Origin: Flaccisagitta enflata
Lineage: Eukaryota
Direction of reading: 5' to 3'
DNA length: 64,000 bases
Assembly: GCA_965153355.1 (NCBI GenBank)
Contig: OZ231126.1
Location: forward strand, 10,540,001-10,604,000
Shown: positions 3,001 through 57,855 of the stretch, one piece after another
Layout of the letters: each line of letters opens with the position of its first letter
Position numbering within the stretch: position 1 is the stretch's first letter
Made by a program: the position numbers and the translations under genes
Notes under the pieces: model-generated
What the model saw: only the letters and a program-made list of their open reading frames with translations
What the model was told of the DNA's origin: nothing
Databases searched by the model: none

Positions 3001-5244
3001 TTTAAAACAAAAAGACAACATTTTCTAGGCTTACAGAGAATCAAGTATCCAGTATCCAGTATCCAGTATCCAGTATCTGCGCCACCATCTTTAATGAATT
3101 AGTTTAAGCCAGTAAAAGGTCATTCATTTCATTCTCTTTGATCTTACTGAAGCATAAAACAGGCCTAATTAACATGTCCGTGTCACCTAAAAGTTTTTTG
3201 TCACACCATTATATGAAATAAAAAAAGTCTTATCTAATAAGAGAGAATCAGGTATCCAGTATCCAGTATCCAGTATCCAGTATCTGCATCACCACATACA
3301 CTCAAACAATGGACTCTAGTCTGAGCTTAGATACTGTAGACTAGCATTAAGGGTCAAGGGTCGCATGTTTAAAACAAAAAGACAACATTTTCTAGGCTTA
3401 CAGAGAATCAAGTATCCAGTATCCAGTATCCAGTATCCAGTATCCAGTATCCAGTATCCAGTATCCAGTATCTGCGCCACCATCTTTGATGAATTAGTTT
3501 AAACCAGTAAAAGGTCATTCATTTCATTGTCTATGATCTTACTGAAGCATAAAACAGGCCTAATTAACATGTCCATGTCACCTAAAAGTTTTTTGTCACA
3601 CCATTATATGAAATAAAAAAAGTCTTATCTAATAAGAGAGAATCAGGTATCCAGTATCCAGTATCCAGTATCCAGTATCTGCATCACCACATACACTCAA
3701 ACAATGGACTCTAGTCTGAGCTTAGATACTGTAGACTAGCATTAAGGGTCAAGGGTGGCATGTTTAAAACAAAAAGACAACAGTTTCTAGGCTTACAGAG
3801 AATCAAGTATCCAGTATCCAGTTTCCAGTATCCAGTATCCAGTATCCAGTATCCAGTATCCAGTATCCAGTATCCAGTATCCAGTATCTGCGCCACCATC
3901 TTTAATGAATTAGTTTAAGCCAGTAAAAGGTCATTCATTTCATTCTCTTTGATCTTACTGAAGCATAAAACAGGCCTAATTAACATGTCCGTGTCACCTA
4001 AAAGTTTTTTGTCACACCATTATATGAAATTAAAAAAGCCTTATCTAATAAGAGAGAATCAGGTATCCAGTATCCAGTATCCAGTATCCAGTATCCAGTA
4101 TCTGCATCACCACATACACTCAAACAATGGACTCTAGTCTGAGCTTAGATACTGTAGACTAGCATTAAAGGTCAAGGGTCGCATGTTTAAAACAAAAAGA
4201 CAACATTTTCTAGGCTTACAGAGAATCAAGTATCCAGTATCCAGTATCCAGTATCCAGTATCCAGTATCCAGTATCCAGTATCTGCGCCACCATCTTTAA
4301 TGAATTAGTTTAAGCCAGTAAAAGGTCATTCATTTCATTCTCTTTGATCTTACTGAAGCATAAAACAGGCCTAATTAACATGTCCGTGTCACCTAAAAGT
4401 TTTTTGTCGCACCATTATATGAAATAAAAAAAGTCTTATCTAATAAGAGCGAATCAGGTATCCAGTAACCAGTATCCAGTATCCAGTATCTGCATCACAA
4501 CATACACTCAAACAATGGACTCTAGTCTGAGCTTAGATACTGTAGACTAGCATTAAGGGTCAAGGGTCGCATGTTTGAAACATTTTCTAGGCTTACAGAG
4601 AATCAAGTATCCAGTATCCAGTATCCAGTATCCAGTATCCAGTATCCAGTATCCAGTATCTGCGCCACCATCTTTGATGAATTAGTTTAAACCAGTAAAA
4701 GGTCATTCATTTCATTCTCTATGATCTTACTGAAGCATAAAACAGGCCTAATTAACATGTCCGTGTCACCTAAAAGTTTTTTGTCACACCATTATATGAA
4801 ATAAAAAAAGTCTTATCTAATAAGAGAGAATCAGGTATCCAGTATCCAGTATCCAGTATCTGCATCACCACATACACTCAAACAATGGACTCTAGTCTGA
4901 GCTTAGATACTGTAGACTAGCATTAAGGGTCAAGGGTCGCATGTTTAAAACAAAAAGACAACATTTTCTAGGCTTACAGAGAATCAAGTATCCAGTATCC
5001 AGTATCCAGTATCCAGTATCTGCGCCACCATCTTTAATGAATTAGTTTAAACCAGTAAAAGGTCATTCATTTCATTCTCTATGATCTTACTGAAGCATAA
5101 AACAGGCCTAATTAACATGTTTGTGTCACCTAAAAGTCTTTTGTCACATCATTATATGAAATAAAAAAAGTCGTATCTAATAAGAGAGAATCAGGTATCC
5201 AGTATCCAGTATCCAGTATCCAGTATCTGCATTACCACATACAC
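1..5244 (+). repeat. Satellite DNA array, monomer ~380-390 bp with two internal (GTATCCA)n tracts
   Basis: ACAACATTTTCTAGGC recurs at 1, 382, 770 and onward. Monomer length varies mostly in steps of 7 nt with heptamer copy number. Confidence 0.98.
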
Positions 5245-5639
5245 TACGCTGAGTCATTTACACTCAAAGAGCTTACCCTGCTTTGGTTCGATGAAAATAC
5301 GTTGACACATCGTAAGAAAGACGTAAACAAACTAACCGGGGACTGTGGATGACCGGCAACCTTCGCCAACACGAAATACTAATTTGGCAGATAAAGCAGT
5401 CATAAGGATTGAAAGCCTGGATTTCAAAGCTGATTATTGTTATTAAAAAAAAATGTTTTTAAGCAAAGAATGATAAAAAATATAAAAATTTTTTAGTACT
5501 AAAGCAGTAAAAAACCAAAAATGTTTTTAAACAAATTTAAAAAATGATAAAACAATATTTTTTTAGTTGTTGCGTGAAAAAGTTGGCTGTCATTCCAAAT
5601 CTCATCGGATTTAAAAACTCCTTAACTACCATTTCTTTG

Positions 5640-6484: not shown

Positions 6485-11647
<5,163 letters not shown>

Positions 11648-11935: not shown

Positions 11936-14900
11936 ACATACACTGAAACAATGGACTCTAGTCTGAGCTTAGATACTGTAGACTAGCATTAAGGGTCAAG
12001 GGTCGCATGTTTAAAACAAAAAGACAACATTTTCTAGGCTTACAGAGAATCAAGTATCCAGTATCCAGTATCCAGTATCCAGTATCCAGTATCCAGTATC
12101 TGCGCCACCATCTTTAATGAATTAGTTTAAGCCAGTGAAAGGTCATTCATTTCATTCTCTTTGATCTTACTGAAGCATAAAACAGGCCTAATTAACATGT
12201 CCGTGTCACCTAAAAGTTTTTTGTCACACCAGTATATGAAATAAAAAAAGTCTTATCTAATAAGAAAGAATCAGGTATCCAGTATCCAGTATCTATCATC
12301 CAGTATCTGCATCACCACATACACTCAAACAATGGACTCTAGTCTGAGCTTAGATACTGTAGACTAGCATTAAGGGTCAAGGGTCGCATGTTTTAAACAA
12401 AAAGACAACATTTTCTAGGCTTACAGAGAATCAAGTATCCAGTATCCAGTATCCAGTATCCAGTATCCAGTATCCAGTATCCAGTATCTGCGCCACCATC
12501 TTTGATGAATTAGTTTAAACCAGTAAAAGGTCATTCATTTCATTGTCTATGATCTTACTGAAGCATAAAACAGGCCTAATTAACATGTCCATGTCACCTA
12601 AAAATTTTTTGTCACACCATTATATGAAATAAAAAAAGTCTTATCTAATAAGAGAGAATCAGGTATCCAGTATCCAGTATCCAGTATCCAGTATCTGCAT
12701 CACCACATACACTCAAACAATGGACTCTAGTCTGAGCTTAGATACTGTAGACTAGCATTAAGGGTCAAGGGTCGCATGTTTAAAACAAAAAGACAACAGT
12801 TTCTAGGCTTACAGAGAATCAAGTATCCAGTATCCAGTTTCCAGTATCCAGTATCCAGTATCCAGTATCCAGTATCCAGTATCCAGTATCCAGTATCTGC
12901 GCCACCATCTTTAATGAATTAGTTTAAGCCAGTAAAAGGTCATTCATTTCATTCTCTTTGATCTTACTGAAGCATAAAACAGGCCTAATTAACATGTCCG
13001 TGTCACCTAAAAGTTTTTTGTCACACCATTATATGAAATAAAAAAAGCCTTATCTAATAAGAGAGAATCAGGTATCCAGTATCCAGTATCCAGTATCCAG
13101 TATCCAGTATCTGCATCACCACATACACTCAAACAATGGACTAGTCTGCTTGAGCTAGATACTGTAGACTAGCATTAAAGGTCAAGGGTCGCATGTTTAA
13201 AACAAAAAGACAACATTTTCTAGGCTTACAGAGAATCAAGTATCCAGTATCCAGTATCCAGTATCCAGTATCCAGTATCCAGTATCCAGTATCCAGTATC
13301 TGCGCCACCATCTTTAATGAATTAGTTTAAGCCAGTAAAAGGTCATTCATTTCATTCTCTTTGATCTTACTGAAGCATAAAACAGGCCTAATTAACATGT
13401 CCGTGTCACCTAAAAGTTTTTTGTCGCACCATTATATGAAATAAAAAAAGTCTTATCTAATAAGAGCGAATCAGGTATCCAGTAACCAGTATCCAGTATC
13501 CAGTATCTGCATCACAACATACACTCAAACAATGGACTCTAGTCTGAGCTTAGATACTGTAGACTAGCATTAAGGGTCAAGGGTCGCATGTTTGAAACAT
13601 TTTCTAGGCTTACAGAGAATCAAGTATCCAGTATCCAGTATCCAGTATCCAGTATCCAGTATCCAGTATCCAGTATCTGCGCCACCATCTTTGATGAATT
13701 AGTTTAAACCAGTAAAAGGTCATTCATTTCATTCTCTATGATCTTACTGAAGCATAAAACAGGCCTAATTAACATGTCCGTGTCACCTAAAAGTTTTTTG
13801 TCACACCATTATATGAAATAAAAAAAGTCTTATCTAATAAGAGAGAATCAGGTATCCAGTATCCAGTATCCAGTATCCAGTATCTGCATCACCACATACA
13901 CTCAAACAATGGACTCTAGTCTGAGCTTAGATACTGTAGACTAGCATTAAGGGTCAAGGGTCGCATGTTTAAAACAAAAAGACAACATTTTCTAGGCTTA
14001 CAGAGAATCAAGTATCCAGTATCCAGTATCCAGTATCCAGTATCCAGTATCCAGTATCCAGTATCCAGTATCCAGTATCCAGTATCTGCGCCACCATCTT
14101 TAATGAATTAGTTTAAGCCAGTAAAAGGTCATTCATTTCATTCTCTTTGATCTTACTGAAGCATAAAACAGGCCTAATTAACATGTCCGTGTCACCTAAA
14201 AGTTTTTTGTCACACCATTATATGAAATTAAAAAAGTCTTATCTAATAAGAGAGAATCAGGTATCCAGTATCCAGTATCCAGTATCCAGTATCCAGTATC
14301 TGCATCACCACATACACTCAAACAATGGACTCTAGTCTGAGCTTAGATACTGTAGACTAGCATTAAAGGTCAAGGGTCGCATGTTTAAAACAAAAAGACA
14401 ACATTTTCTAGGCTTACAGAGAATCAAGTATCCAGTATCCAGTATCCAGTATCCAGTATCCAGTATCCAGTATCCAGTATCTGCGCCACCATCTTTAATG
14501 AATTAGTTTAAGCCAGTAAAAGGTCATTCATTTCATTCTCTTTGATCTTACTGAAGCATAAAACAGGCCTAATTAACATGTCCGTGTCACCTAAAAGTTT
14601 TTTGTCGCACCATTATATGAAATAAAAAAAGTCTTATCTAATAAGAGCGAATCAGGTATCCAGTAACCAGTATCCAGTATCCAGTATCTGCATCACAACA
14701 TACACTCAAACAATGGACTCTAGTCTGAGCTTAGATACTGTAGACTAGCATTAAGGGTCAAGGGTCGCATGTTCGAAACATTTTCTAGGCTTACAGAGAA
14801 TCAAGTATCCAGTATCCAGTATCCAGTATCCAGTATCCAGTATCCAGTATCCAGTATCTGCGCCACCATCTTTGATGAATTAGTTTAAACCAGTAAAAGG

Positions 14901-17900
14901 TCATTCATTTCATTCTCTATGATCTTACTGAAGCATAAAACAGGCCTAATTAACATGTCCGTGTCACCTAAAAGTTTTTTGTCACACCATTATATGAAAT
15001 AAAAAAAGTCTTATCTAATAAGAGAGAATCAGGTATCCAGTATCCAGTATCCAGTATCCAGTATCTGCATCACCACATACACTCAAACAATGGACTCTAG
15101 TCTGAGCTTAGATACTGTAGACTAGCATTAAGGGTCAAGGGTGGCATGTTTAAAACAAAAAGACAACAGTTTCTAGGCTTACAGAGAATCAAGTATCCAG
15201 TATCCAGTTTCCAGTATCCAGTATCCAGTATCCAGTATCCAGTATCCAGTATCCAGTATCCAGTATCTGCGCCACCATCTTTAATGAATTAGTTTAAGCC
15301 AGTAAAAGGTCATTCATTTCATTCTCTTTGATCTTACTGAAGCATAAAACAGGCCTAATTAACATGTCCGTGTCACCTAAAAGTTTTTTGTCACACCATT
15401 ATATGAAATAAAAAAAGTCTTATCTAATAAGAGAGAATCAGGTATCCAGTATCCAGTATCCAGTATCCAGTATCTGCATCACCACATACACTCAAACAAT
15501 GGACTCTAGTCTGAGCTTAGATACTGTAGACTAGCATTAAGGGTCAAGGGTCGCATGTTTAAAACAAAAAGACAACATTTTCTAGGCTTACAGAGAATCA
15601 AGTATCCAGTATCCAGTATCCAGTATCCAGTATCCAGTATCCAGTATCTGCGCCACCATCTTTAATGAATTAGTTTAAGCCAGTAAAAGGTCATTCATTT
15701 CATTCTCTTTGATCTTACTGAAGCATAAAACAGGCCTAATTAACATGTCCGTGTCACCTAAAAGTTTTTTGTCGCACCATTATATGAAATAAAAAAAGTC
15801 TTATCTAATAAGAGCGAATCAGGTATCCAGTAACCAGTATCCAGTATCCAGTATCTGCATCACAACATACACTCAAACAATGGACTCTAGTCTGAGCTTA
15901 GATACTGTAGACTAGCATTAAGGGTCAAGGGTCGCATGTTTGAAACATTTTCTAGGCTTACAGAGAATCAAGTATCCAGTATCCAGTATCCAGTATCCAG
16001 TATCCAGTATCCAGTATCCAGTATCTGCGCCACCATCTTTGATGAATTAGTTTAAACCAGTAAAAGGTCATTCATTTCATTCTCTATGATCTTACTGAAG
16101 CATAAAACAGGCCTAATTAACATGTCCGTGTCACCTCAAAGTTTTTTGTCACACCATTATATGAAATAAAAAAAGTCTTATCTAATAAGAGAGAATCAGG
16201 TATCCAGTATCCAGTATCCAGTATCCAGTATCTGCATCACCACATACACTCAAATAATGGACTCTAGTCTGAGCTTAGATACTGTAGACTAGCATTAAGG
16301 GTCAAGGGTCGCATGTTTAAAACAAAAAGACAACATTTTCTAGGCTTACAGAGAATCAAGTATCCAGTATCCAGTATCCAGTATCCAGTATCCAGTATCC
16401 AGTATCTGCGCCACCATCTTTAATGAATTAGTTTAAGCCAGTAAAAGGTCATTCATTTCATTCTCTTTGATCTTACTGTAGCATAAAACAGGCCTAATTA
16501 ACATGTCCGTGTCACCTAAAAGTTTTTTGTCACACCATTATATGAAATAAAAAAGTCTTATCTAATAAAAGAGAATCAGGTATCCAGTATCCAGTATCCA
16601 GTATCCAGTATCTGCATCACCACATACACTCAAACAATGGACTCTAGTCTGAGCTTAGATACTGTAGACTAGCATTAAGGGTCAAGGGTGGCATGTTTAA
16701 AACAAAAAGACAACATTTTCTAGGCTTACAGAGAATCAAGTATCCAGTATCCAGTATCCAGTATCCAGTATCCAGTATCCAGTATCCAGTATCCAGTATC
16801 CAGTATCTGCGCCACCATCTTTAATGAATTAGTTTAAGCCAGTAAAAGGTCATTCATTTCATTCTCTATGATCTTACTGAAGCATAAAACAGGCCTAATT
16901 AACATGTCCGTGTCACCTAAAAGTTTTTTGTCACACCATTATATGAAATAAAAAAAGTCTTATCTAATAAGAGAGAATCAGGTATCCAGTATCCAGTATC
17001 CAGTATCCAGTATCTGCATCACCACATACACTCAAACAATGGACTCTAGTCTGAGCTTAGATACTGTAGACCTGCATTAAGGGTCAAGGGTCGCATGTTT
17101 AAAACAAAAATACAACATTTTCTAGGCTTACAGAGAATCAAGTATCCAGTATCCAGTATCCAGTATCCAGTATCCAGTATCCATTATCTGCGCCACCATC
17201 TTTGATGAATTAGTTTAAACTAGTAAAAGGTCATTCATTTCATTCTCTATGATCTTACTGAAGCATAAAACAGGCCTAATCCACTAATATGTCCGTAAGT
17301 TACCTAAAAGTTTTTTGTCACACCATATATGAAATAAAAAAGTCTTATCTAATAAGAGAGAATCAGGTATCCAGTATCCAGTATCCAGTGTCCAGTATCT
17401 GCATCACCACATACACTCAAACAATGGACTCTAGTCTGAGCTTAGATACTGTAGACTAGCATTAAGGGTCAAGGGTCGCATGTTTAAAACAAAAAGACAA
17501 CATTTTCTAGGCTTACAGAGAATCAAGTATCCAGTATCCAGTATCCAGTATCCAGTATCCAGTATCTGCGCCACCATCTTTAATGAATTAGTTTAAGCCA
17601 GTAAATGGTCATTCATTTCATTCTCTTTGATCTTACTGAAGCATAAAACAGGCCTAATTAACATGTCCGTGTCACCTAAAAGTTTTTTGTCACACCATTA
17701 TATGAAATAAAAAAAGTCTTATCTAATAAGAGAGAATCAGGTATCCAGTATCCAGTATCCAGTATCTGCATCACCACATACACTCAAACAATGGACTCTA
17801 GTCTGAGCTTAGATACTGTAGACTAGCATTAAGGGTCAAGGGTCGCATGTTTAAAACAAAAAGACAACATTTTCTAGGCTTACAGAGTATCAAGTATCCA

Positions 17901-19091
17901 GTATCCAGTATCCAGTATCCAGTATCCAGTATCCAGTATCCAGTATCTGCGCCACCATCTTTGATGAATTAGTTTAAACCAGTAAAAGGTCATTCATTTC
18001 ATTCTCTATGATCTTACTGAAGCATAAAACAGGCCTAATTAATATGTTTTGTAAGTCAATTTAAAAAGTTCTTGCTTCATCATTATATGAAATAAAAAAA
18101 AGTCGTATCTAATAAGAGAGAATCAGGTATCTAGTGTATCTAGTATCCAGTATCCAGTATCTGCATCACCACATACACTCAAACAATGGGACTCTAGTTC
18201 GAGCTAGATACGTAGACTAGCATTAAGGTGGTCAAGGCTGATGTTTAAAACAAAAAGACAAATATTTTCTAGGCTTACAGGAGAATCACATCTATATCTG
18301 TGCATCCAGTATCCAGTATCCAGTATCCAGTATCCAGTATCTGCACCACCATCTTTAATGAATTAGTTTAAGCCAGTGAAAGGTCATTCATTTCACTCTC
18401 TTTGATCTTACTGAAGCATAAAACAGGCCTAATTAACATGTCCTGTCACTCAAATGTTTTTTGTCACACCATTATAGGAAATAAAAAAGTCTTATCTAAC
18501 AAGAGAATCAGGTATCCAGTATCCGCATCTTAGTATCCAGTATCTGCATCACCACACACACTCAAACAATGGACTCTAGTCTGGAGCTAGATACTGTAGA
18601 CCAGCATTAAGGGTCAAGGGTCGCATGTTTAAAACAAAAAGACAACATTTTTAAGGTTTACAGAGAATCAAGTATCCAGTATGCAGTATCCAGTATCCAG
18701 TATCCAGTATCCAGTATCCAGTATCTGCGCCACCATCTTTGATGAATTAGTTTAAACCAGTAAAAGGTCATTCATTTCATTGTCTATGATCTTACTGAAG
18801 CATAAAACAGGCCTAATTAACATGTCCATGTCACCTAAAAGTTTTTTGTCACACCATTATATGAAATAAAAAAAATCTTATCTAATAAGAGAGAATCAGG
18901 TATCCAGTATCAAGTATCCAGTATCCAGTATCTGCATCACCACATACACTCAAACAATGGACTCTAGTCTGAGCTTAGATACTGTAGACTCAGCATTAAG
19001 GGTCAAGGGTGGCATGTTTAAAACAAAAGACAAATAGTTTCTAGGCTTTACAGAGGAATTAAGTATCCAGTATCCAGTTTCAGTATCCAGT
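11936..19091 (+). repeat. Satellite array (continuation), indel-rich after ~17280
   Basis: Same monomer and orientation as 1-5244. It ends inside a heptamer tract at the junction with the retroelement integrase. Confidence 0.98.
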
Positions 19092-20560
19092 AATTGAACG
19101 AAGTGGCAATGATGCACAGATCTCCTGGCCTTAACAGTCGCGTGAAGTCGGTGGGGGAAGTTCGCTTGGTCCTCTTCAGATGGTTTCTCACGTCGTGAAA
19201 ACGGACCAACTCACCTACCACTCTTGCTGCTTTCACCGTCGGCGTTGAGTCAACAGGTTGGTCACCAAGGTGGTGTAAGAAGTTGGTCGGTGCTTTAGCG
19301 AAATGTACATTTTTAGGCGAATAGGCGCCATTGCCTAAAATTGTAGAATTTGTGGAATTGTACACAAACGCACTTTCCGCGACCAAGCGTGTAAATGGCC
19401 AGCTAGGGTTGTCTGTCTGTAGGGAACTATATATCCTCATATAGGTGTTGATGGCGCGTTCGACTTTTGCTTGGGATCTAGAGGTGTAGGGTAAGCCGTG
19501 GCTTATTTCAACCCCCTGCTCTTCCAAAAATCTGTGTGATTTGCTTCCAGGCTTGGCGATGGCGTTGTCCATTTGGAGGCGGCGTGGAAAGCCGCAAAGT
19601 TTATCGCGGGTGTCAATCAAGGCTGCGAGGATTTCTTCGTCTGCACAAGAACTGATGCATTTGCTTATCAAGAAACGGCTGAACTCGTCGACATATAGGT
19701 AAACAAATTTGCTGTTTAAGCCGCCTGAAATTTGACATACATCGATTTCTGCGCTTTCATTAGGCTCAAGGGCCAATTTATCTCCTGTTTTTGTAGACAT
19801 GCCTCTTTTGTGTTTATTCAACTGGCAAGTGGGACACTGAACTAAAAGCTTGTCCAGTAATTTTCGTAGTGAAAATGAATAGTACAGCTTTATTAGTCAC
19901 ATAAATGTCCGTCTTTTGCCCGCGTGTCTGTTTGGTGATGAAATTCCTGAGTGCGTGTCCTTTATCAACGACTTCATTTTGTCCTCGCCTACTACTATTA
20001 GAGCTGTTAATGTGCCGTCAGCGCCATGCCAAAGCCTCATCAATATTCCATCCTCATTTATTTTGAAAAGCGAGCGGTTTCTTAGGAAAGATTGTACCGA
20101 TTTATCTTTTGCTAAGGCTTCCGTCTTTTCTATCTTTTTGTTGTTAATGAGGATGCTTTTGATTTCTTCAATTATGGGATCATTTTGAAGAGTCTGTACA
20201 TTATCTAGTTTTCTCCCTTTGAATCTTTCTAGCTGAAAATTAGCTACTAGATCGTAATCTAGCTCGGGATCGTCGGTCGGTTCGTCGTATCCTTGATTGA
20301 CTAGTTCATCGTTGAGAGTATAGGCTGCTATCATTTCCGCGGCTTTGCCATTTTTGAGTTTTTCCTCCGGTGCTACTATCTCTAAAACGCGGCCTAATTC
20401 CTTCGCCTCCGTGCGTGCTCTTTGCTTATCCTCCACTACTACCCTTGAAGGATCAATGGCGTGAGCCATTTCTTGGTTGCGTTTGCGAGTGAAGAATTCG
20501 TTGGCTTCTTGCGCGTATTTTTCGGAAAAAAGATTGCACCATGGGATGTTTAGCCGTTTG
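19092..20560 (-). pseudogene. pol: linker and integrase (HHCC zinc domain + DDE core), one in-frame stop, C-terminus truncated
   Basis: THSGISSPNRHAG...CPTCQ zinc motif with a TGA at 19897-19899. Core motifs EIDVCQ / VDEFSRF / LQMDN / SQAKVERA. ORFs 19897..20469 and 19048..19821 are in the same frame. Confidence 0.88.
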
Positions 20561-20618
20561 GGGTGTAAGTGATTTTACCAAAAAACGTTCGTATTTACAT
20601 ACAGGTTTTTTGTCTGTT

Positions 20619-21771
20619 CTAGTTCGCGTTAAAAAAAAAAATCGCTGATGTTGAGCCTTGTTTCGATGAACAATAGTTTAAAGTTATATTTTGTAGTCTC
20701 ATCACCCGACGTACGAGATCTTTCGGAATTAAGTCCAGCGAACTCCAGCGTCTCACTGTAGTACTGTCCGTGATGCTGAAGAAAGATCGCCCGCTCAGGT
20801 AATAATCGTATTTGCATGTGGTTTCTTCGAGGGCGCACAATTCGAGGATCCATACCGGGTATGATGACCAGGTATCCTCGATGCGCCTCAACCAGCATGC
20901 CACAATATGCAAATAACGTTTCGACGGATCTAATTTGGAGCTTGGTAGTGGATACAAGGCTTGTGTTATTATGCCGGAAATGCTAACGGAACTCGCGTCC
21001 GTCCATATTAGTGTGAGCGCGTCGGGATCGTTCGACATCGTGCGGATTGCGCCGACCGTGTCATAGAGAAGATAATCTTTAAGCGCTTCAAATTCCTTTT
21101 TGTCGCCTGGCTGCGGATTGAACCGCACCTTGGGGTGGCCAAGGCGTCGTAAGTGCGCCAACTTTTGAGACAAAAGGGGAGCCACGGGTATAAAGTAGCT
21201 GAAAAATGCTGCTTTACTCACGGCTTCTTTCTTGTCGCGCGGAAACTCCATTTCCTTTATTTTCTTCTTCTTTTCGTCGGACAAACTTTTCGCACCTTGG
21301 GATAGTTGGTATCCTAAAACGCGTATGTCCAGACGACATAAATCCACCTTCTTTGGGCTCAAAAGTAGAGTGTACTTAGAGCAGATGGCAAGGGCTTTCG
21401 CCAAATCTTCCCTTACGTGGGTCTTTTGGTCTTTCGAGGCCACCGTTATGTCGTCGACGAAGCAAAACATTCTGGGATGTTGTCTGCTTATCCGTTCCAT
21501 ATAATATTGGACCCAGCTGGAACTGGAATGGAAACCCATCGGCAAACGCTTGAGCATAAATATGCGAGAGAGAGATGGACATTGGAACGCCAAGTAACGC
21601 CGTGCGCTGTTACTATCAACTAAGAATTGATAATACATCGCAACGGCGTCAAGGTTAGTAAATACACAGTAATTTTCCGACGAAACCGAACGAAAAAATT
21701 CATCAGCGATAGGGACCGGATATTGAACGTGACAAGTGCGCTGGTTCAAAAATCTGCAATCGATTACGAAC
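20619..21771 (-). CDS. pol exon 2: reverse transcriptase and RNase H (frameshifted at its 3' end)
   Basis: RT motifs FVIDCRFLN, LDAVAMYYQF, LPMG, CFVDDI, VLGY. RNase H motifs WTDASS, ELCAL, ITDS. The frame shifts at A/T homopolymers near 20630-20692, with the continuation KYNFKLLFIETRLNISDF in ORF 20629..20898. Confidence 0.9.
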
Positions 21772-21884
21772 CTAAAAAGAGAAATAGTCATGGTTTGGCT
21801 TAGTCTAGGGTTAGAAAAGATTATGTTTCTTAAGTTTTTGACCCTAAAAATATCTAAAAATAACCTAATAAGTCATGTCTTAAC
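21772..21884 (-). other. Putative 113-nt spliceosomal intron within the RT domain
   Basis: CAG|GTTAAG donor, AT-rich interior, CTAAC branch-like motif, TTTCTCTTTTTAG|G acceptor. Removal joins KEKSR to FVIDCRFLN in frame. Confidence 0.75.
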
Positions 21885-24139
21885 CTGGATTTCTCCTTCA
21901 TTCGCTTTTCGCTCGCGATCCATCGATGCTCGACGACAATCCCGACAGGTGATATAAATGCGTCGGATGTGTCGTGGAGCTCTTCGATGATTCCCCTTTC
22001 AAGCATGACTTTCAAGTGTTCTTTTAGATGGCGCAATTTTGTCGCGTTCATTCTTCTCGGGGGTATTCTTGGGAATGGTGCTGAATTTTTCTGTAAATTA
22101 ATTTTTATTGGCGCCATCTCCACTCCCCTGTGGAACATGTCAGGTCGAGATTCGTTCATCATGACATGACGAAAAGACCAAAGAAGATCGCTTACTTCGT
22201 TCTTTAATTCGCCATCGACTGCCGACATGTCGAACATTTTTAAGTATTCCGCTCGATCAGGCCAAAAATCGCATCTGTCGCTGCGTTTTCTCTCTTTGTC
22301 GACGTCTACGGGTGTATCGTCAATACCTATATCGGGTTCCGGTGTCGAAAAATCTAAGTCGATAGCTATGCCGTCCTTTAAGCATTTTTGGAATTTTTCG
22401 TTGTCGACTTTATTGATATCGACTAATTCTGAAAAATTTACCGGTTTTCCGTCCGAATTTGGTCCATTTTGGTTGTTCGTGGGCAATTCCAATTTATGCG
22501 TATTTTGAAAATTGTTACTGCCCTTTGAAAGTTGTATTGGTATGTTTGTTTGCTTTTTCTGTTTCGGAATATGGCTTAAAATCGTGTTTTGGTCCGTCGG
22601 TTCAGGAGTTATGGCCGATTTTTGAATTTTGCCTAATTTGCATAATTCGGGGGTACCACTTTTTTGATCCAAATTAAGTTTTGATGGTTGGATATTGTCC
22701 GTTGTGTCTTCCCGAGTCATATTAGGTGCTTGTTTTTGTTCTCCCCTCCTCGGATCCAAAGATATTGGCTTTTGAAGATTTTTACTATCAATTTTCGGTT
22801 GCCCGGATTTGGTGCGATTCACCCCAGGGTGCGAATTTTCTGCTCCTTCCGCGAGCGTCGAAATTTCGGAGCAAGTAAGATTTTTCATTGATTTTATGGT
22901 TTCTTTCAGTTGGTCGCCGTCATAGGCCATTACAGTGAACCTATTTGCTTTATCCGCGCACCGTTTTATTTCGCCCACGGGTGTACCTTTTCCAAAGCAG
23001 ACCTCGAAGCAGACTTCGTTACTGGATTTGTTTTCTATCGTCACTAGAAAATGTCCGTTTGATTCGTACATTATCATACTTGGTATGTATAATTCGTTCG
23101 TCTCTTGTTCGTCGTCAAACATGGAAAGGAACACGTATTTCTCTTTTCTGTTCAAATCATAGTCCGTCACTACTTCTATGTCTGCAACGCTATATGGTTT
23201 GACGCTCTGTTTGACTTTTGATCGCACCCAGTTTGGGCGTCTATCGTTAATTTTCCTTTCTTTGCGGCATTTCCCTTCATACATTCTAGAATGTAACTCT
23301 TTAATAGCTTCTTCCGGTGAACAAGCTGTCTTTAAGGGGTATTTGTCTATCCACAAAATCTCCGTTTTTGTGTTTAAGGAAACATTCAATCTAGAATTGC
23401 GGAAAATGTCAATACCGATTATTGTATATTCCGTCTTACATATGAAAAACTTCATGATAGCTACTACTGATCCGAAATGTAATCGCAAGGTACTAGTCTC
23501 AGTAATAGTCTGCGTTGATCCGTTGTCGAAGCTACGGATTTTCATAGGTGTGGATAGTTTCTCTATCTTCCCTAATCTGCTCGTCACGTGATCCGTTATG
23601 CTAATGTCCGCGGCTGAATCGGCGAAGCACACCACCTCGTCATTACCTATCTTTCCTGCCAAATAATATTTCCCTCGCTTCTTTCTAAATGCGGAGATTG
23701 TTTTAGTCACTTTTGGATTGTATGATGTCAAAAGTTTGATTCTATTTGGAGAATTTTTATTTGAGTATTTTGGCAGGACTTGCGAATCAATTATTGAATT
23801 GTCACATTGAATTGGAGCATTTGAATAGGTTTGGTTATCATCACAGGCGGTAGCATAACAATTCGATTGGTGTTCAGGACATGTAAAAGTGTCATTAATC
23901 ACAGATGAGCGGTTACATTGAGCAAATTGATCACAATTGGTTTCATGAGATACAACAGTAGAATTGAGATTCGAAACAATGGGTGTACAAGCGTTTTGTT
24001 TGGGGCTGCCATTAGAATTTTGCTTATTTTTAGGGATAGGTAAAATATGAGATTCAATCACACAATTTATAGATTTTGATTCAATTTTCAGATCTTTCAA
24101 TTGTCTTTCGATATTTTCAGCCCCGTTTGAGTTGTCTAG
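21885..24139 (-). CDS. pol exon 1: aspartic protease, spacer and RT N-terminus
   Basis: CFADSAADIS (variant of D[ST]GA) and IIGIDIF protease motifs. MLERGIIEE..SPVGIVV RT-start motifs. In frame with gag across a single TGA. Confidence 0.82.
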
Positions 24140-25531
24140 TCATTTAGATTTTCCAGCTTCTCTCAAGATTTTCATTCTCTCGGCTTTGTCCTTGGGCATT
24201 TTGCGACATAATGGCGCAAAATGCCTAGAATCGTTACGGGTAAATACTTTTTTACAGAAGACACAAGTATCAGGACAAAACTTAAAAAAATCTTCGTATA
24301 AATGAGAAGTCCGGAGGCAGCCCAGGCATCCGCGTAGTCCTGCCGCGTTGGCAGCCTTTGCTGCCTCGTTGAGAGATGTGCTGTGGTTGAACGAGGCTAT
24401 TCCTTTGCCTCTAGCGCCTGGCCTGGATGGCCCTGCCGTCCCTCGGCCCCTGGTAGCGCCCCCGCGGCCCCCGATACGGCCCCTTGACGTAGTGGGGTTG
24501 CCGGGGTTGCCTCGGCGGGCTGCGGCCCCTGCCTGTACCCCTCTGCCTCTTGATGTTGACGGGTGTTTGGCTCCTCTCCCTCTGCCGGCGGAGGAATTCC
24601 TGTTTAAAGTCGCGATCGATTGGCGGTTGAATCCTCTTCCTCTTCCGGTCTTTTTTGTGGATTGGCGTTGCGATTGGTTTGCGAAACTCCGCTCTCCTTC
24701 CATCGCTATATTTTGCACCGTACGACTGGCATAGTTCCTGACGGAAAGAAGGGAACGGTCAGGTCCGTAGTCGTGCATCCGTACATATTTACGCAACACG
24801 GGGGAGAGTATTCCGTCAATAAAAGCTTCTACTGAGTCGTCAATCGGTCGGCCCGTCTCTTCGTGGACATCTATATGCGCCTCATAATAGGCCTCGATAG
24901 TCTGCCCCGGGAGCTGTTTGTGGGTTCTGGCCATCATTAATGCGTGGCTTTTCACATTGGGCCACTGGCGGACAATGAATTCGTTAATAAACGCTCAGAA
25001 ACTTGTGAAGGTCTCTTGAATAGTTGTCATTTCTTTTAAGACATGGTAAAATTTCTGAGTTTTGCTCATAAAGACCGCCACAATGGTATACATTGTGACG
25101 TCCATAGTGATGCTAGCCTTCACAGTTTCGATAAAATTTCTCACTGTCCGCTTAAAGTAAAAAATCTCGTCTTGGCCTGATGGAACATAATCAAATTTGT
25201 ATTTGGAGGCGATTTTCTCCACAAATTTGTAATGTTCCATGTTGGCCGTTCCCCCAAAAACAGATCCCCCTTTACGGTGTTGGATTATGTATCCGTCAGG
25301 GTCCATTTCGTCAATGCTCGGGTACATGGGGACCCTCTCGGTTCCGAGCTCGTGTCTTACCGGGTCAAGTTCGCTGTCCGGCATGCCGAGGACGGCTGCG
25401 TCCGCCCGATAGAGTACGGAGATGCCCGCTGAATCGTCGCGGTCGTCGCGTAAATCCCGTACACTTTCGACCTCGGCGTCGTCGTCGGCTTTCCATGTCG
25501 TTAGTGTCGCTTGGTTCCAACCCTTTATCTT
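24140..25531 (-). pseudogene. Gag core: capsid-like region, RGG-rich tract and two Cys/His knuckle-like motifs; one in-frame TGA at 24995-24997
   Basis: KQLPGQTIEAYY...FIDGI...LRKYV capsid-type motif. CLGC-x4-H-x7-C and CVFC-x10-H-x4-C. ORFs 24995..25384 and 24140..24955 are in the same frame. Confidence 0.78.
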
Positions 25532-28500
25532 TTAGTCGATCGGGATGGCTTTCACTTTTGAACCGAGTCGCTCTCTGACGGGCAATTTTTGTTGATGCTG
25601 TTGCGGAAGTGGTGATCGCTGACGAGGCTTTGGGCTCGCCTCTCTCTTCTTCCTTTCACGCCTTTTGGGTGGGCGATCGCTGTCGTCGTCACTGTCGTCG
25701 CTGCTGTCGGACTGCTTGGCTGACGTCATTTCCTCGTCTTTGCAACTATTTTTGACCTTCGCCTTTTTATCCTTCCCCTTAGGTGAAGAATGGCTTGGGC
25801 TGCGACTCTTTGGGCGTGTTGAAGATGGTGAATTTGACGGGCGTTGATCGCGCTGACTCTCGACGGTTCGGCGTCGTTCACTGTCGCTTCTGTCGAGAGA
25901 ACTGCGTTTGCGGCCGTCGTTACTCCCGGCGCGTCTTTCCATTGACTGGTTTCCGCCCTTTTTGCCGGTCTCCGATCCGCTTCGCCTCCCGCCACTTCCG
26001 GTCGTCTCGTCATGCGGCCTAGCAGGAGGTGAGTCCGTTATTTTTCCCCACTTCTCCTCCTGTTGGCGTTGGGTGAGCCTTTCGGTGAAGTTTGTGACGA
26101 TTCTTTTGTCTCTGACGTTGGAACTGCTCGTGATGGAGTCGCTTCTGGTCCCGCTCGCCGACGCTGCACTTCTTTCCGAGGAGCTACTTCCTTTTCTTGG
26201 AGGTTTTACGCTTTTCTGCCTATCTTCGTATCTCGCTTTTCTCATCTTTGCCGTTTTTCTTTGTTCATCCTCCTTGGCCCATTCCTCCCTACGGCGTCTC
26301 CGCTCCTCCTCTTCCTTTCTATCCTCCTCGTCCCTTTTCTTCTGTTTTTCTTTTCGCTTTGCTTCGGCCTCTTGTTCTTCCCTTTTTCTTTGGTCCTCCC
26401 TGAACCATCTTTCGTCGGAGGATGATTCACTGTAAGAGGTGAGTGAGCTCGCTGGGCTGGGATGCCTTGTCTTTGAAGAAGTAGCTGGCGGATTTATTTT
26501 GGCGCCGTCTGGAGATTCCCCTCTTTTCTTGTCTTTGCCTCTTTCCGGTGAATTGAGGGTGTGGCTCTCTAATTTTCTCTGCAAGCCGTCGCATCTTTCG
26601 TTCCATGCTTCTTTCTCGCGAGCGGCGTTGATCGCCTTTTGTTCATCTGTCATCTCCTCGTCCTCTTCTCCGCTGTCCTGAGTGAAAGCGCGGATATGAA
26701 GGACGTCGCCGCTTGTTTTATTTTTCATCTCCTCCTCCCCAATTGTGCAGTCCACCACTTCCGTGGTGTCGGCCTCTGTTGCTGATGAGAGGATTTTAGC
26801 TGATGTGGCCGGTTGCTTGTCGACTTGTTTCGCGCTGCCCGCGTCGGAATCGCGCGTGGTATCCGCTGCGGTTGCTTCTTTGTCTTCAAATTGCTTTGTC
26901 TTCTTGTCGACGCCACCCTTGACCCCTCTCACTTCCGACTTTTCTCCATCTTTGATGAGGCTTTTTCCGGAAGCTGAGCGTTCCATATGGGGCTCGTCGG
27001 GTTCCATTCCTATGGTGTTCCTCATGTAGGATACCAAATCGCTGACTTCGTCTCTATCCATGATTTTCTTGGAGTGGATTTGCTCCAGCATACTTGCAAA
27101 ATTTTGGATGCAAACCCTCATGCTGTTGATTATATGGATTTGATCATCGTAGGTGCCTTTGGCTTCCCCGAGTTTCTTCTCGAGTCTTTCGCGCTTTTGT
27201 TTCTCCTCGTTGAGGAGTTTTCCTTGACCAGCCATTGCTTCTTGCAGCTGCTTCGCTTCCTCTTTTGCTTTTTTGGCGTTCTTTTTGTCGCGATCCATCC
27301 ATACAGCGGCCTTTTCCCTCTGCTTTTCGAGTGCGGATTTTAAAGCTACTTGTCTTTCCTGCCGCTCCTTCTCGTTTTGGGGTTTGCCCATTACTTCCAA
27401 GAGCTTCCCCGTGATCCTTTGGTACTCCAGGTAATGCGCCTGGAATTCTTTCAAGAGGGTTCTGTATGGAGCAGAATTCTTAACAAATTCTGCCTGTACG
27501 TCGATGTGTTGTTTATGCAGATCTCTCATCTTCACCGCACCTGTTAGCTGATTTCTCAACCTGGATAACTCGTTTCTGTCCACTTCTGACTCCTGCTGCT
27601 TCAGTTCCAACTCCTTCCTTTTCTCTTCCATCTTGTCGACGTGCTCCTTCACTTCCTCTTCCAATTGAATTTTTAGGTTCAGGTAAGCCTTGTTAACGGA
27701 TTCGAAATTGGCGGATTGAGTTCGATTCCTCTCTTTCAGTTTTTGGAACTCTACGTCTTGGAGTCTGAATGCCTCGAGTTCGTTCTCTTTTTCCTCTAGG
27801 CTGTGGTTCAGCTTCTGAATTTCCGCCTTTTGTGCGTCTCTTTCCTTTACGGTGGTGACGAATTCTTTCGAGGTTTCTTCCTCTCTCCTCGGTTTTAATT
27901 CCAGATCGCGGGTCGTTCTATATTCCTCCAGCAAATCTCGTCGGAGTTCATCCATCTGGGTTTGCATCTGTACCATTTTTGCTTTGAGTGTATCATTTTC
28001 GGATGCAATTTTGGATGCCGCGGCGTCTGCATCCCTCATGGATTTATCCATTTCAGCATGGATTCTTTCGATTTCTTTTTGATGCTCTTCCTTGTCATGC
28101 AAGTGATTCTGCTGGGACTCGATGAGGGCCAATTCCAGCTCCTTCCTCGTTGGTGGCGCGTTGCCGCTGCTTAACACAATGATGTCTTCGCTGTTGCTGT
28201 TGAGTTCTGCTGCGGCGGCGTCGTTGTTGGGGGTGTTGTCGTTGACCTCCTCATTATGGCCCGTCGTAGCGTTATCCGGCTGCTCATGGTCGCCGGCTGT
28301 GTCCACACTGGATTCTGATGAGGATGAGTGTGCTCTGCATGAAGGGTTGTCCATGGCGAGGTCGATTACGTCCAACATTCTCGCCAAACAGTTGATGGAG
28401 AACATGTAGAATGTTTTTACCTCCTCCAAATTCCATGCTTTCGCCCTACTTGCCTCATTCATGCCGAGTTGTTCGCAGATGGTTTTGTGAGAGGCCGTTC

Positions 28501-29968
28501 TTACTCTACATCCCCCGCAAAGCGTAGCGAAGACAATGTTGTAGTGTATCGCAGCGCCTTTCGCCAAACGCGTTCTCGTCGTGATGAGTGCCCTCAAGGT
28601 GATTTTTATCGGGATAGTTTGATCCTTCAGCCAGTCGTCCTGAGTAGAGCGAAGGACTGACTCAGTCATTCCGTCCTCGGTGATGTAGTTGTGTGAATCT
28701 GGATTGCTGTCATCCTCGCGTCGTAGATCAGCCCAGACTGTCGATTTCCCGGCTAACGCGTAAAATGCCGGTGAAGAAACGGTTAAGTTGCTATCCATCG
28801 TGAGGGCTTTGGAAACTAGGGTCTGTCTGCCTTCGAGTAGGATCGGTTGAGTGGTGACTTGAACCATCGTCACCCACGACAACTTCCCTCTCCAGTAATC
28901 GAAGGAAGTGTTGTATCGAGTGATGACGCTCTCCGCATCCTCGTTGTTGTCATTCTCTTTGGGTGATTGACCGCCTTCATTTGTCGCGCTGGCGGTTTCG
29001 TCGATGACCAGTTTATTCTCGCCGTCTTCGTCGGTGGTAGATGATGATGGTGTTGAAGCGGCCGCTGCTGCTGCTGCTGCTGTTGCTGCTGCTGCCTCCG
29101 CCGCTTCTTCCTCCTTTTTCTTCTTGCTGGCTTCCTCTACCTCCTTTTGCATCCTACTTTGCTCCTCTGCCTCTTTTGCTTTTCTCTCCTGTGCCGCTTT
29201 GGAGGCTTCCTGCTCCCTTTCCTTTCTCCTTTCCTCCGCCGCTTTTTCCGCCTGATCATGATTCTTATGATGCATCTCGATTCGACTCTCTGCTTCCTCC
29301 GCTTCTTTTTCCCCTCTCAGACGCTTTGGATTTTCCTCGTCGCGGATGGTGGCGGTGCCTGTCGCGGTTTCCGTCGCCTCTGCGCCGTGAGCTTCGTCGT
29401 TCGACGCCTGAGAGTCGACGTAGAAGTTGCAAGGTGGAGGTGTGTTAAGGCACATATCGTGAGGAGGTAGGTTGGATTGCTGTGTGGCGTCAGTTAACTG
29501 CCTCCACGTCTGATCTTTGTCCAATTCATCCCATGCTTTCATGATGTTTCCCTGCTCGTCATCGTCAGGATCGTCTGCAGTTATCGGCGAGACGCTTGCC
29601 AAGAGGAGTAGATCTTGCTCTTTGTCGCGGACGCGAAAACCACTTATCATCGGGTCGTTATCGCTGTCCGCTATTTGGATGGTCAAAACGTCGGCCCTTT
29701 GATTTTTGGGATGATCGTTGGAGTCGGCGGAACAACCCGCCGCGTCGGCGGAAGATGCTGTGGAGCATGATGGACCGCCCGTGGAGTCGGCGGAATGCCT
29801 CGTCGAGTCGGCGGTAACCGTTATAACCTCGATGTCGGCGGCCGAATTGGAGGCATTTTTCGTCGATTTTTGCCGGGTTCTTGACGCCGATGGTTTTGAC
29901 GCCGTTTCTTGCCTCGGCGCCGCCCCTTGCGGACTGGGGTGCCGATTAGCTTTTTTATTTCGGACCAT
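25532..29968 (-). CDS. Large coiled-coil/low-complexity ORF, in frame with gag (probable N-terminal Gag extension)
   Basis: Open for ~1480 codons from the first true ATG (29968, MVRNKK). It has an E/K/Q-rich heptad region and an S/R-rich tail. After the TAA at 25532-25534 the frame stays open for 49 codons into the gag ORF. Confidence 0.8.
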   Translation of the reverse strand: MVRNKKANRHPSPQGAAPRQETASKPSASRTRQKSTKNASNSAADIEVITVTADSTRHSADSTGGPSCSTASSADAAGCSADSNDHPKNQRADVLTIQIADSDNDPMISGFRVRDKEQDLLLLASVSPITADDPDDDEQGNIMKAWDELDKDQTWRQLTDATQQSNLPPHDMCLNTPPPCNFYVDSQASNDEAHGAEATETATGTATIRDEENPKRLRGEKEAEEAESRIEMHHKNHDQAEKAAEERRKEREQEASKAAQERKAKEAEEQSRMQKEVEEASKKKKEEEAAEAAAATAAAAAAAASTPSSSTTDEDGENKLVIDETASATNEGGQSPKENDNNEDAESVITRYNTSFDYWRGKLSWVTMVQVTTQPILLEGRQTLVSKALTMDSNLTVSSPAFYALAGKSTVWADLRREDDSNPDSHNYITEDGMTESVLRSTQDDWLKDQTIPIKITLRALITTRTRLAKGAAIHYNIVFATLCGGCRVRTASHKTICEQLGMNEASRAKAWNLEEVKTFYMFSINCLARMLDVIDLAMDNPSCRAHSSSSESSVDTAGDHEQPDNATTGHNEEVNDNTPNNDAAAAELNSNSEDIIVLSSGNAPPTRKELELALIESQQNHLHDKEEHQKEIERIHAEMDKSMRDADAAASKIASENDTLKAKMVQMQTQMDELRRDLLEEYRTTRDLELKPRREEETSKEFVTTVKERDAQKAEIQKLNHSLEEKENELEAFRLQDVEFQKLKERNRTQSANFESVNKAYLNLKIQLEEEVKEHVDKMEEKRKELELKQQESEVDRNELSRLRNQLTGAVKMRDLHKQHIDVQAEFVKNSAPYRTLLKEFQAHYLEYQRITGKLLEVMGKPQNEKERQERQVALKSALEKQREKAAVWMDRDKKNAKKAKEEAKQLQEAMAGQGKLLNEEKQKRERLEKKLGEAKGTYDDQIHIINSMRVCIQNFASMLEQIHSKKIMDRDEVSDLVSYMRNTIGMEPDEPHMERSASGKSLIKDGEKSEVRGVKGGVDKKTKQFEDKEATAADTTRDSDAGSAKQVDKQPATSAKILSSATEADTTEVVDCTIGEEEMKNKTSGDVLHIRAFTQDSGEEDEEMTDEQKAINAAREKEAWNERCDGLQRKLESHTLNSPERGKDKKRGESPDGAKINPPATSSKTRHPSPASSLTSYSESSSDERWFREDQRKREEQEAEAKRKEKQKKRDEEDRKEEEERRRRREEWAKEDEQRKTAKMRKARYEDRQKSVKPPRKGSSSSERSAASASGTRSDSITSSSNVRDKRIVTNFTERLTQRQQEEKWGKITDSPPARPHDETTGSGGRRSGSETGKKGGNQSMERRAGSNDGRKRSSLDRSDSERRRTVESQRDQRPSNSPSSTRPKSRSPSHSSPKGKDKKAKVKNSCKDEEMTSAKQSDSSDDSDDDSDRPPKRRERKKREASPKPRQRSPLPQQHQQKLPVRERLGSKVKAIPID

Positions 29969-30569
29969 TATTGTGAGTGTCTCTTTTGATTTTTGTCTCT
30001 TAGTAGTGTTGGTAAATGCTCCCAAGTTTATATTTTTCTAATTTTGTGATTCTTTCAGAAAGAAACGGAAATTGAATAATTTCAATATCTGGAATAAAAG
30101 AATCATGGGAAAATAGAATTTTAAGCGAAACTTGAATCAATCAACATAGCTGCAACAAAATCTCATAAGTATACGAGAGACAATTTTAGACACAATTGAT
30201 CACAAATTGAGGTCAGTGTTTTTGTTGAATACTTTTTTGTCCAAAATACATGATTACTTTCTTTTTAATGCCAATCTTAAAGACTCTAGAAATTCTAGTT
30301 AGGTCAATCATGATTTCCAATTATGATTTCTATTCATTCTTTTATCTTTAATAATTAATCATTCTCATAAGTAATCATGTATTTTGAGTGTTTCTAACCC
30401 TGAGCTGTTTTCTGCATTTCTGTTTACCATAACATGATGGAAAATATTTATCAAGTGATGGATGAGAGTCACATTTTATACTTAGAACACAACTTCAGCC
30501 GGTTTATTTTATCATGTTATACCATGGGTGTGTACCCTTCAAATATTTTATCATCATGCTTTGTTTGTG

Positions 30570-36375: not shown

Positions 36376-37632
36376 TTTTTAGTCGCGTGCACGCGACTCT
36401 ACAACCCGCTCCGTCGGTCCGTCCGTGGGTTGGTCGGTCGGTTGGTCTGTAACACTTTGCTTTTTTGCGTCATTTTTTGTCATTTTGAGTCGTCTGGAGT
36501 TATTTTGAATCATTTTTTTTTGTGTTTTTGAGAATTATTGTTTGTTTTTGGTCATTTTTTATCAATTTTTATCATTTTTGGTCATTTTAGTCATTTTGGT
36601 CATTTTTGTCAATTTTGTCATTTTTGATCATTTTTTGTCATTTTTGGTCATTTTTGGGTCATTTTCGGTCATTTTTGGTCATTTTCGGTCATTTCGTTCA
36701 TTTCGATCATTTTGGTCATTTTGGTCATTTCGGTCATTTTTGGTCATTTTGGTCATTTTGGTCATTTTAGGTCATTTTTGGTCATCTGCTGATTTTAGTC
36801 TGCTGGTTTAATTCTGCTGGTTTAAGTCGGCTGGTTTAAGTCTGCTGGTTTAAGTCTGCTGGTTTAAGTCTGCTGGTTTAAGTCTGCTGGTTCAAGTCTG
36901 CTGGTTCAAGTCTGCTGGTTTAAGTCTGCTGGTTTAGGTCTGCTGGTTTAAGTCTGCTGGTTTAAGTCTGCTGGTTTAGGTCAGCTGGTTTAAGTCTGCT
37001 GGTTTAAGTCTGCTGGTTTAAGTCTGCTGGTTTAGGTCAGCTGGTTTAAGTCTGCTGGTTTAAGTCTGCTGGTTTAATTCTGCTGGTTTAAGTCTGGTTT
37101 AAGTCTGGTTTAAGTCTGGTTTAAGTCTGGTTTAAGTCTGGTTTAAGTCTGGTTTAAGTATGGTTTAAGTATGGTTTGAGTCTGGTTTGAGTCTGGTTTG
37201 AGTCTGGTTTGAGTCTGGCTTGAGTCTGGCTTGAGTCTGGCTTGAGTCTGGTTTAAGTCTGGTTTAAGTCTGGTTTAAGTCTGGTTTAAGTCTGGTTTAA
37301 GTCTGGTTTAAGTCTGGTTTAAGTCTGGTTTAATTCTGGTATAAGTCTGGTTTAAGTCTGGTTCATGTCTGGTTTAGGTCTGGGTTTGGTCTGGTTTATG
37401 TCTGGTTTAGGTCTGGTTTAGGTCTGGTTTTGGTCTGGTTTTGGTCTGGTTTTGGTCTGGTTTAGGTCTGGTTTAATTCTGGTTTGAGTCTGGTTTGAGT
37501 CTGGTTTGAGTCTGGTTTGGGTCTGGTTTGGGTTTGGTTTAAGTCTGATTTTTGATAAAAAGATACAATAAGGAGTCAGGTCAGTTCAGTTATTTTTGTC
37601 CTGCACGCGACTTATAGGTGTTGGCCTTGTTT
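36376..37632 (+). mobile_element. HINE-like family A copy with expanded internal tandem arrays (9-10, 14 and 11 nt units)
   Basis: 5' perfect palindrome AGTCGCGTGCACGCGACT and 3' GCACGCGACTTATAGGTGTTGGCCTTGTT. T-rich flanks. Confidence 0.82.
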
Positions 37633-57000: not shown

Positions 57001-57115
57001 TCAACAATGGTGGCGCAGATACTGGATACTGGATACTGGATACTGGATACTGGATACTGGATACTGGATACTGGATACTTGATTCTCTGTAAGCCTAGAA
57101 AATGTTGTCTTTTTG

Positions 57116-57805: not shown

Positions 57806-57855
57806 CTTTTTGTTTTAAACATGCGACCCTTGACCCTTAATGCTAGTCTACAGTA

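Follow-up and report, generated by a model that had tools for sequence, protein, structure and literature searches.

We found that the pol gene of a Ty3/gypsy-like retroelement, located on the minus strand of the window (the whole 64-kb stretch of DNA that was analysed), is split by a segment of 113 nt (21884..21772). With a probability of roughly 60%, we predict from its sequence that this segment is a functional U2-type GT-AG spliceosomal intron; at the same level of confidence, it would have been gained within the fingers region of the reverse transcriptase (RT) by one Ty3/gypsy-like lineage of a marine eukaryote and retained since. A more extended version of this reading is put forward tentatively, at somewhat less than even odds: an active family would have fixed an obligatory intron in the RT fingers independently of the plant element Ogre, splicing and UGA read-through would together gate RT, RNase H and integrase (RT-RH-IN), and retention of the intron would mark the packaged RNA, so that intronless copies never establish.

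Anatomy of the segment and of the element that carries it

The last bases of exon 1 are ...AAA TCC AG, up to 21885, and exon 2 begins at 21771 with G TTC GTA ATC GAT TGC AGA TTT TTG AAC; the segment between them (21772..21884, minus strand) is in phase 2 and splits an Arg codon as AG|G. It starts with GTTAAG, ends with TTTCTCTTTTTAG (TAG), carries CTAAC at intron positions 71-75 (21814..21810), 39 nt upstream of the acceptor, and has a pyrimidine run ahead of the final AG, at about 21775-21788. The features of a spliceosomal intron, i.e., GT and AG as the first and last bases, a branch-site-like motif and a pyrimidine tract, were thus all present. The coordinates and description of the segment in an earlier sequence-only reading of the same DNA agreed with the sequence and the list of open reading frames (ORFs). 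The G+C content of the segment is 28%, compared with 45% in the flanking exons. Its length is not divisible by 3, and a stop codon is located 10 codons inside. The donor GTTAAG is atypical in that T occupies position +3; the usual consensus, GTRAGT, is a general one and may not be that of the host, for which no intron-bearing gene was recognised in the window.

The upstream stop-to-stop ORF (21854..24139, 761 aa, with the C-terminal end ...EKRMKEKSRLRHDLLGYF) and the downstream ORF (20619..21872, which includes FVIDCRFLN) are in different frames. When exactly 113 nt were taken out, AG|G (Arg) was followed by Phe and ...KEKSR was joined to FVIDCRFLN. In the alignment with long relatives, the last column of exon 1 was 842 and the first column of exon 2 was 844. 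Similarly, tblastn placed residues 327-519 of one relative, P0003, at 22459..21881 and residues 518-874 at 21773..20691; because these ranges meet at 518/519, the two pieces of the window abut in P0003 coordinates. The earlier claim that exact removal restores the RT motif was borne out by this result and by the long relatives, 7 of 7 of which were uninterrupted. Both the anatomy and the restored homology support the predicted intron.

A 5-nt sequence, AGGTT, was found at both junctions of the segment and may be a 5-bp target-site duplication (TSD), although AGG at both junctions is expected from the splice consensus in any case. Beyond this consensus, only the extra TT of AGGTT is unexplained, which would occur by chance in about 1 of 16 cases. 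It had been stated in the sequence-only reading that neither a TSD nor terminal inverted repeats mark the segment. The part on inverted repeats stood, as none were found at the ends of the segment and the repeat search returned only short A/T-rich matches there; the part on the TSD was overstated, as AGGTT is present at both junctions. This repeat raises an origin compatible with the predicted intron, namely that a short mobile sequence was inserted with duplication of AGGTT, giving both AG|GT junctions in a manner similar to introners. Introners are short insertions that become introns and often derive their splice sites from the TSD; they are common in aquatic taxa, occurring 6.5 times more often in aquatic organisms (PMC9860276), and the element described here comes from a marine organism. 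However, introners are multi-copy and found in many unrelated genes, and here no second copy was seen outside the element in the window and contigs. Within the 64-kb window there was no other copy of the 113 nt, so that an independent repeat elsewhere, named earlier as a finding that would count against an intron, was not encountered there. Besides, the contigs of two DNA runs passed both boundaries of the segment unbranched. Together with the missing inverted repeats and the AGG expected from the splice consensus, these observations argue against an introner-like insertion, and we regard such an origin as unlikely.

Removal at the DNA level (programmed elimination), or by a self-splicing or other structured RNA, was given very little weight. 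The joined form was not seen in the DNA runs, an Rfam scan of the segment gave 0 matches at E up to 1, and its fold was no better than that of shuffled sequences (z -0.15). In addition, group I and II introns are much longer than 113 nt. Two more TTTTTAG motifs are located within the segment, with their last bases at intron positions 31 and 41. From about intron position 12 onward the exon 2 frame is open, and splicing to the AG at 41 would add 24 residues in frame, an insertion that was found in no relative.

With regard to the element, pol part 1 (21885..24139, minus strand, 751 codons plus AG) contains a protease motif, DSAAD (23606-23620), a spacer and the start of the RT (PIKINL at 22111), whose first ~75 residues, to ...KEKS, lie in exon 1. 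Pol part 2 (20691..21771, minus strand) contains the rest of the RT and RNase H as far as a frameshift near 20690. The integrase part of pol (19111..20690, minus strand) is in a third frame, with the rve core at about 19483-19767. Pfam matches were RVT_1 (E 1e-15, about 21303-21761), RT_RNaseH (E 8e-8, about 20691-21029) and rve (E 4e-6, which is below Pfam's cut-off in the decayed window copy), and the sister ORFs matched PF00078, PF17917/17919, PF17921 and PF00665. This domain order on the minus strand, protease-RT-RNase H-integrase, is that of a Ty3/gypsy-like (Metaviridae-like) element. The spacer between the protease motif and the RT, about 400 residues long (window 22400-23600), had no Pfam match and is conserved among relatives in the blocks NW.R, ENK and GE.K.C.

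Putative gag (24143..25531, minus strand) had no Pfam match and carries a Cys/His motif, CLGC...H...C. It is followed by the stop codon TGA (24140..24142) and then CTA G (context 24136-24142), in the same frame as pol, which is a likely read-through site; the TGA-CTA-G context favours stop-codon read-through. Among the sister ORFs listed, the full-length ones begin just downstream of this TGA, so the gag stop seems to be conserved, and we infer that pol may be expressed through its read-through.

The copy in the window is a dead, decayed and 3'-truncated relic. Gag has a premature in-frame stop (24995-24997), and the integrase part, beyond the frameshift near 20690, has in-frame stops at 20629-20631, 20575-20577 and 19897-19899. 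Intact sister ORFs could be matched as far as 19111, beyond which the element is truncated at its 3' end by a satellite array with units of about 381 bp (11936..19092), which begins by 19092. Because the satellite removes this end at 19092-19111, the long terminal repeats (LTRs) cannot be paired in the window copy: a 3' LTR is lacking, and no long direct repeats flanking the element were found in 10000-35000. A second intron near 20690 was rejected, as the sister ORFs are continuous there and the break is a frameshift of the window copy.

The segment in sister copies and its absence from relatives

The upstream query matched two protein clusters, P0017 and P0018, which represent two subfamilies with 73-88% protein identity. 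Within the part of exon 1 that served as the query, P0017 (32 members) was 93% identical to the window copy and P0018 (subfamily B, 7 members) was 76% identical over the same part. Except for 5 that end earlier, the 15 members of P0017 listed reach the site, and all of these (10/10) continue with KSR followed by L[R/K]H[D/V]LL[G/D]YF-stop, which is the translation of the start of the segment. Members of P0018 end in KSRLITL (6/7) or KSRLRHDLLGYF (1/7). Thus, every sister ORF that reaches the site, among those listed (17/17), is interrupted directly after KSR, and in all 17 the Arg is followed by Leu, consistent with G|GTTA. At the other end, the window copy has an ATG in the exon 2 frame 21 nt before the end of the segment (MTISLFR-FVIDC...), and such an ATG is where 4 ORFs of the downstream cluster P0002 begin (MTISLFR-FVIDC). 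Because these ORFs start within the last 21 nt of the segment, the acceptor region is kept there too. The downstream ORFs listed for subfamily B start further downstream (MERISRQ). Both P0018-type and P0001-type ORFs come from contigs of 13026, 6712, 6712 and 7963 nt; judging from these shared contig sizes, both halves are probably intact on the same contigs in subfamily B.

Sequenced DNA gave a similar picture. A contig of 475 nt from run X5 (DNA of organism A; 21607-22081, depth 1065) and one of 514 nt from run X1 (marine metagenome; 21652-22164, depth 35) both span the segment without a gap. These depths suggest many copies, although depth is not equal to copy number. The joined, segment-free form was absent from the contigs of these two runs; contigs drop rare variants, and rare intronless copies would escape this check. 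The intact ORFs of the protein collection are, for their part, a biased sample of copies. No matches to the DNA of sister copies or relatives were found in viral contigs or genome contigs. Sister copies without the segment, which the sequence-only reading had named as evidence for a one-off insertion, were therefore unseen, and the 17 ORFs and two DNA contigs all carry it.

The differences listed inside the segment numbered 6, at intron positions 35, 40, 50, 54 and 80 (4 of 113 nt in X5 and 2 of 113 nt in X1). All of them are interior, leaving GT, AG, CTAAC and the pyrimidine run untouched. The tail of subfamily B differs from that of the window after GTTA, as read from its 4-residue read-through tail. 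The earlier expectation of conserved GT/AG ends with a diverged interior was thus supported by the 6 interior differences and, for subfamily B, as far as the read-through tail extends. The presence of the segment in all copies examined supports its retention.

Most relatives outside this family had a continuous RT at the same site. The query with the downstream piece matched seven long ORFs (P0003-P0009, 1163-1688 aa, 51-56% identical), all of which pass through the site as K/Q-S-R-F/V/M. Metagenome contigs contained just two distant relatives, L001 and L002, at 36% identity; L001 has a 1337-codon ORF through ...KKSRFTIDL..., in which the Arg codon is CGA. The last 171 residues of exon 1 were searched exhaustively against 1.84 billion cluster representatives, and 29 representatives, those whose match extends to the end of the query, were counted. 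The majority (22/29) were uninterrupted for at least 25 residues beyond the site, and one continued for 7 residues past it and then ended. The single interrupted representative was P0018, the window's own cluster. Two diverged ahead of the site and one diverged 3 residues after it. The remaining two end at the site, P0073 exactly at Arg and P0098 one residue earlier; these ends could represent a contig end or another interruption.

Among relatives at 30-56% identity, the segment appears to be confined to the window's own lineage. This absence from outgroups points to a lineage-specific gain, which would be a simpler reading than repeated loss; the relatives may derive from DNA or from RNA assemblies. 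The sequence-only reading had asked whether relatives keep an intron here, and those in the other clusters do not (22/29 representatives, 7/7 long ORFs and L001 are without it). P0073 (330 aa, 37% identical) has the Arg of the KSR site as its last residue. Its end would fit a phase-2 intron starting with GTAA and also a contig end, and it may represent a second lineage interrupted at the same codon.

Selection on the flanking exons and the RNA data

We classified 35 listed exon differences between the window and the contigs, with 5 intron rows and 8 unlisted rows left out and position 22124, which has two alleles, counted twice. We found that 23 were synonymous and 12 were not, compared with a random expectation of about 21% synonymous (binomial p 1.5e-8, or 1.4e-5 against an assumed 30%). 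Within the RT-coding stretch (21080-22172), 19 were synonymous and 3 were not, and in the two contigs that carry the segment all of the listed exon differences (9/9) were synonymous, one more difference of the X5 contig lying outside the list. The two subfamilies differ in protein by 27% in part 1 (723 aligned residues) and by 12% in part 2 (933), and they comprise 8 and 6 distinct full-length ORFs, respectively, for part 1 and 3 and 5 for part 2. Judged from this substitution pattern, which supports the predicted intron, purifying selection acts on both flanking exons, and because both subfamilies are interrupted, both halves would have been kept under purifying selection after the segment arose. 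An RT that is under selection and is split by 113 nt with a stop inside implies that the segment must leave the mRNA; on this argument, the RT would be expressed and removal of the segment from RNA would be required. Selection on the flanks would also fit a model in which unspliced RNA is replicated and spliced RNA makes RT.

In this model, the full-length unspliced RNA would be the template for reverse transcription, and every copy would thereby retain the intron. The unspliced RNA would give Gag and, upon read-through of TGA-CTA-G, a Gag-protease-spacer product ending 10 codons into the intron, and the complete Gag-protease-RT-RNase H-integrase polyprotein would be made solely from the spliced fraction. 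Splicing may then work as a second throttle that limits RT and integrase compared with Gag, in the way described for Ogre in plants. What we infer is that splicing takes place, that unspliced RNA is selected as the template, that the gag stop is read through and that splicing has a regulatory role. Reverse transcription of spliced RNA erases introns, and each spliced mRNA could in principle seed an intronless copy. An intron that survives many rounds of retrotransposition and has to be taken out to make RT would thus imply sorting of translated and copied RNA.

RNA data touched the element in one place. In a polyA RNA run from organism A (X23, from the study that also gave the DNA), 0 of the 12.2 million raw reads were on the element, leaving the junction uncovered. 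A metatranscriptome run (X12) contained one contig of 300 nt (21899-22198), which extends to within 15 nt of the donor. A search of the protein collection for an ORF containing the spliced junction, in the length classes 672-2000, 413-1315 and 94-300 aa, was negative; P0061 ends ahead of the junction.

These data are compatible with a different explanation, in which an unspliced insertion disabled the RT in a master copy and the family spread non-autonomously, either with RT provided in trans or through duplication of its DNA in satellite-rich heterochromatin. The terminal GT and AG of the segment would then have arisen by chance or as a consequence of the AGGTT repeat. Complementation in trans is established for LTR retrotransposons and counts for such an explanation, as do the lack of a spliced-form ORF in the protein collection and of spliced reads in RNA runs that leave the junction uncovered, the donor position +3 that is off consensus, and the fact that the window copy is dead and sits in satellite. 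It is hard to reconcile with the synonymous excess on both sides of the segment (23:12 overall, 19:3 in the RT, 9/9 in the spanning contigs), with the full-length ORFs of both halves in two subfamilies that are 12-27% diverged in protein, and with the DNA runs, in both of which a near-identical intronless helper was unseen. We consider a disabling insertion to have a small chance of being correct.

Selection on both halves would also be explained, without splicing, if the downstream ORF were translated separately, for example by reinitiation at the intronic ATG (MTISLFR-FVIDC...). The product would be RT-RH-IN without the first ~75 RT residues, and the upstream product might make up for their loss. 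The frame of exon 2 is indeed open into the segment with an ATG 21 nt before its end, where gene callers start 4 sister ORFs. However, the break would fall inside the block SP..V....KSR|F..D.R.LN, which is continuous in 22 of the 29 representatives, in the seven long ORFs and in L001. Besides, the subfamily B ORFs listed start at MERISRQ, and a conserved intronic start was not evident. We know of no split RT of such a kind and regard separate translation as improbable. 

Comparison with known systems and surroundings of the element

In the literature consulted, a retained intron that must be removed to make RT is documented for plant Ogre alone (PMC6317226). As in Ogre (Tat lineage of plant Ty3/gypsy; Pisum, Medicago), where all genomic copies keep the intron, the segment described here interrupts the polyprotein coding region and is kept by all copies examined. 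The intron of Ogre, which is partially spliced, separates GAG-PROT from RT-RH-INT, whereas here, as known from sequence alone, it would separate Gag-protease-spacer and ~75 RT residues from the rest of RT-RH-IN. Compared with Ogre, the intron predicted here is also shorter (113 nt), lies about 75 residues inside the RT and divides an Arg codon in a conserved motif. It belongs to an element of a marine eukaryote, and splicing has been shown for Ogre and is predicted here. Ogre is the closest analogue of our element. We assume that the two introns have independent origins, as the runs that bear the element are marine.

Other LTR elements use host splicing in a different way. Ogre has been grouped beside copia, BARE, CRR, EVADE and Cer1, whose splicing yields other products, and in copia, BARE1 and EVADE (Ty1/copia) host splicing sets the Gag:Pol ratio and the unspliced RNA replicates (PMC3735527, PMC12786077). 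The likeness to our element is that of an LTR retrotransposon using host splicing to tune Gag:Pol. In copia, BARE1 and EVADE, pol is lost or disabled through splicing, which leaves an mRNA for Gag alone, and all products are encoded by the unspliced RNA. In contrast, the unspliced RNA of our element could not encode RT and would need splicing. For retroviral env splicing and for Cer1 CERV of C. elegans, it has been described that full-length RNA must escape splicing for packaging (PMC10309623, PMC12786077). A similarity is that spliced RNAs encode other products. Retroviral and Cer1 introns span gag-pol and give accessory or env mRNAs, and none is both small and required for RT.

Penelope-like elements belong to a different class, with a GIY-YIG/TERT-like RT and without LTR-type pol, and the mechanism of intron retention may differ there. 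Genomic copies of these elements keep spliceosomal introns. Literature searches listed no comparable case, in which the RT domain of an LTR element would contain a small intron that has to be removed. What sets the present case apart is that the intron lies inside the RT domain, is shorter and belongs to an element of a marine organism. If the predicted intron is real, it would be an independent second case, in a marine organism, which would make the strategy convergent, and it would offer a compact 113-nt system for studying how retroelements exclude spliced RNA from particles. It also calls for caution in annotation, as gene prediction would split the pol of such families into two ORFs and treat it as broken.

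The whole 64-kb window is a satellite-rich region. Arrays of approximately 381 bp with (ATCCAGT)n occupy 1-5245, 11936-19092 and 48667-64000; those on the right are oriented opposite to those on the left, with the retroelement and other ORFs between them. Upstream of putative gag, and in the same frame with a single stop between, lies a 1501-codon open frame (25532-30037, minus strand), which is rich in K, E, R and S and has about 50% G+C, like gag. It matched no Pfam family above the cut-off, and its best score in the protein atlas was 0.86, which is below evidence level; it may represent either a giant 5' ORF belonging to the element or an exon of the host or of another transposable element. 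A second RT ORF (40798-42282, plus strand; RVT_1 E 8e-26) belongs to a separate retroelement and is preceded by a 429-codon ORF without a Pfam match. Simple and minisatellite arrays were located at 9332-9878, 10373-10791, 36785-37551 and 60079-61425; these four comprise (AAC)n, (CTTT)n, units of 11-14 nt and 10-nt TCATTTTAAG units.
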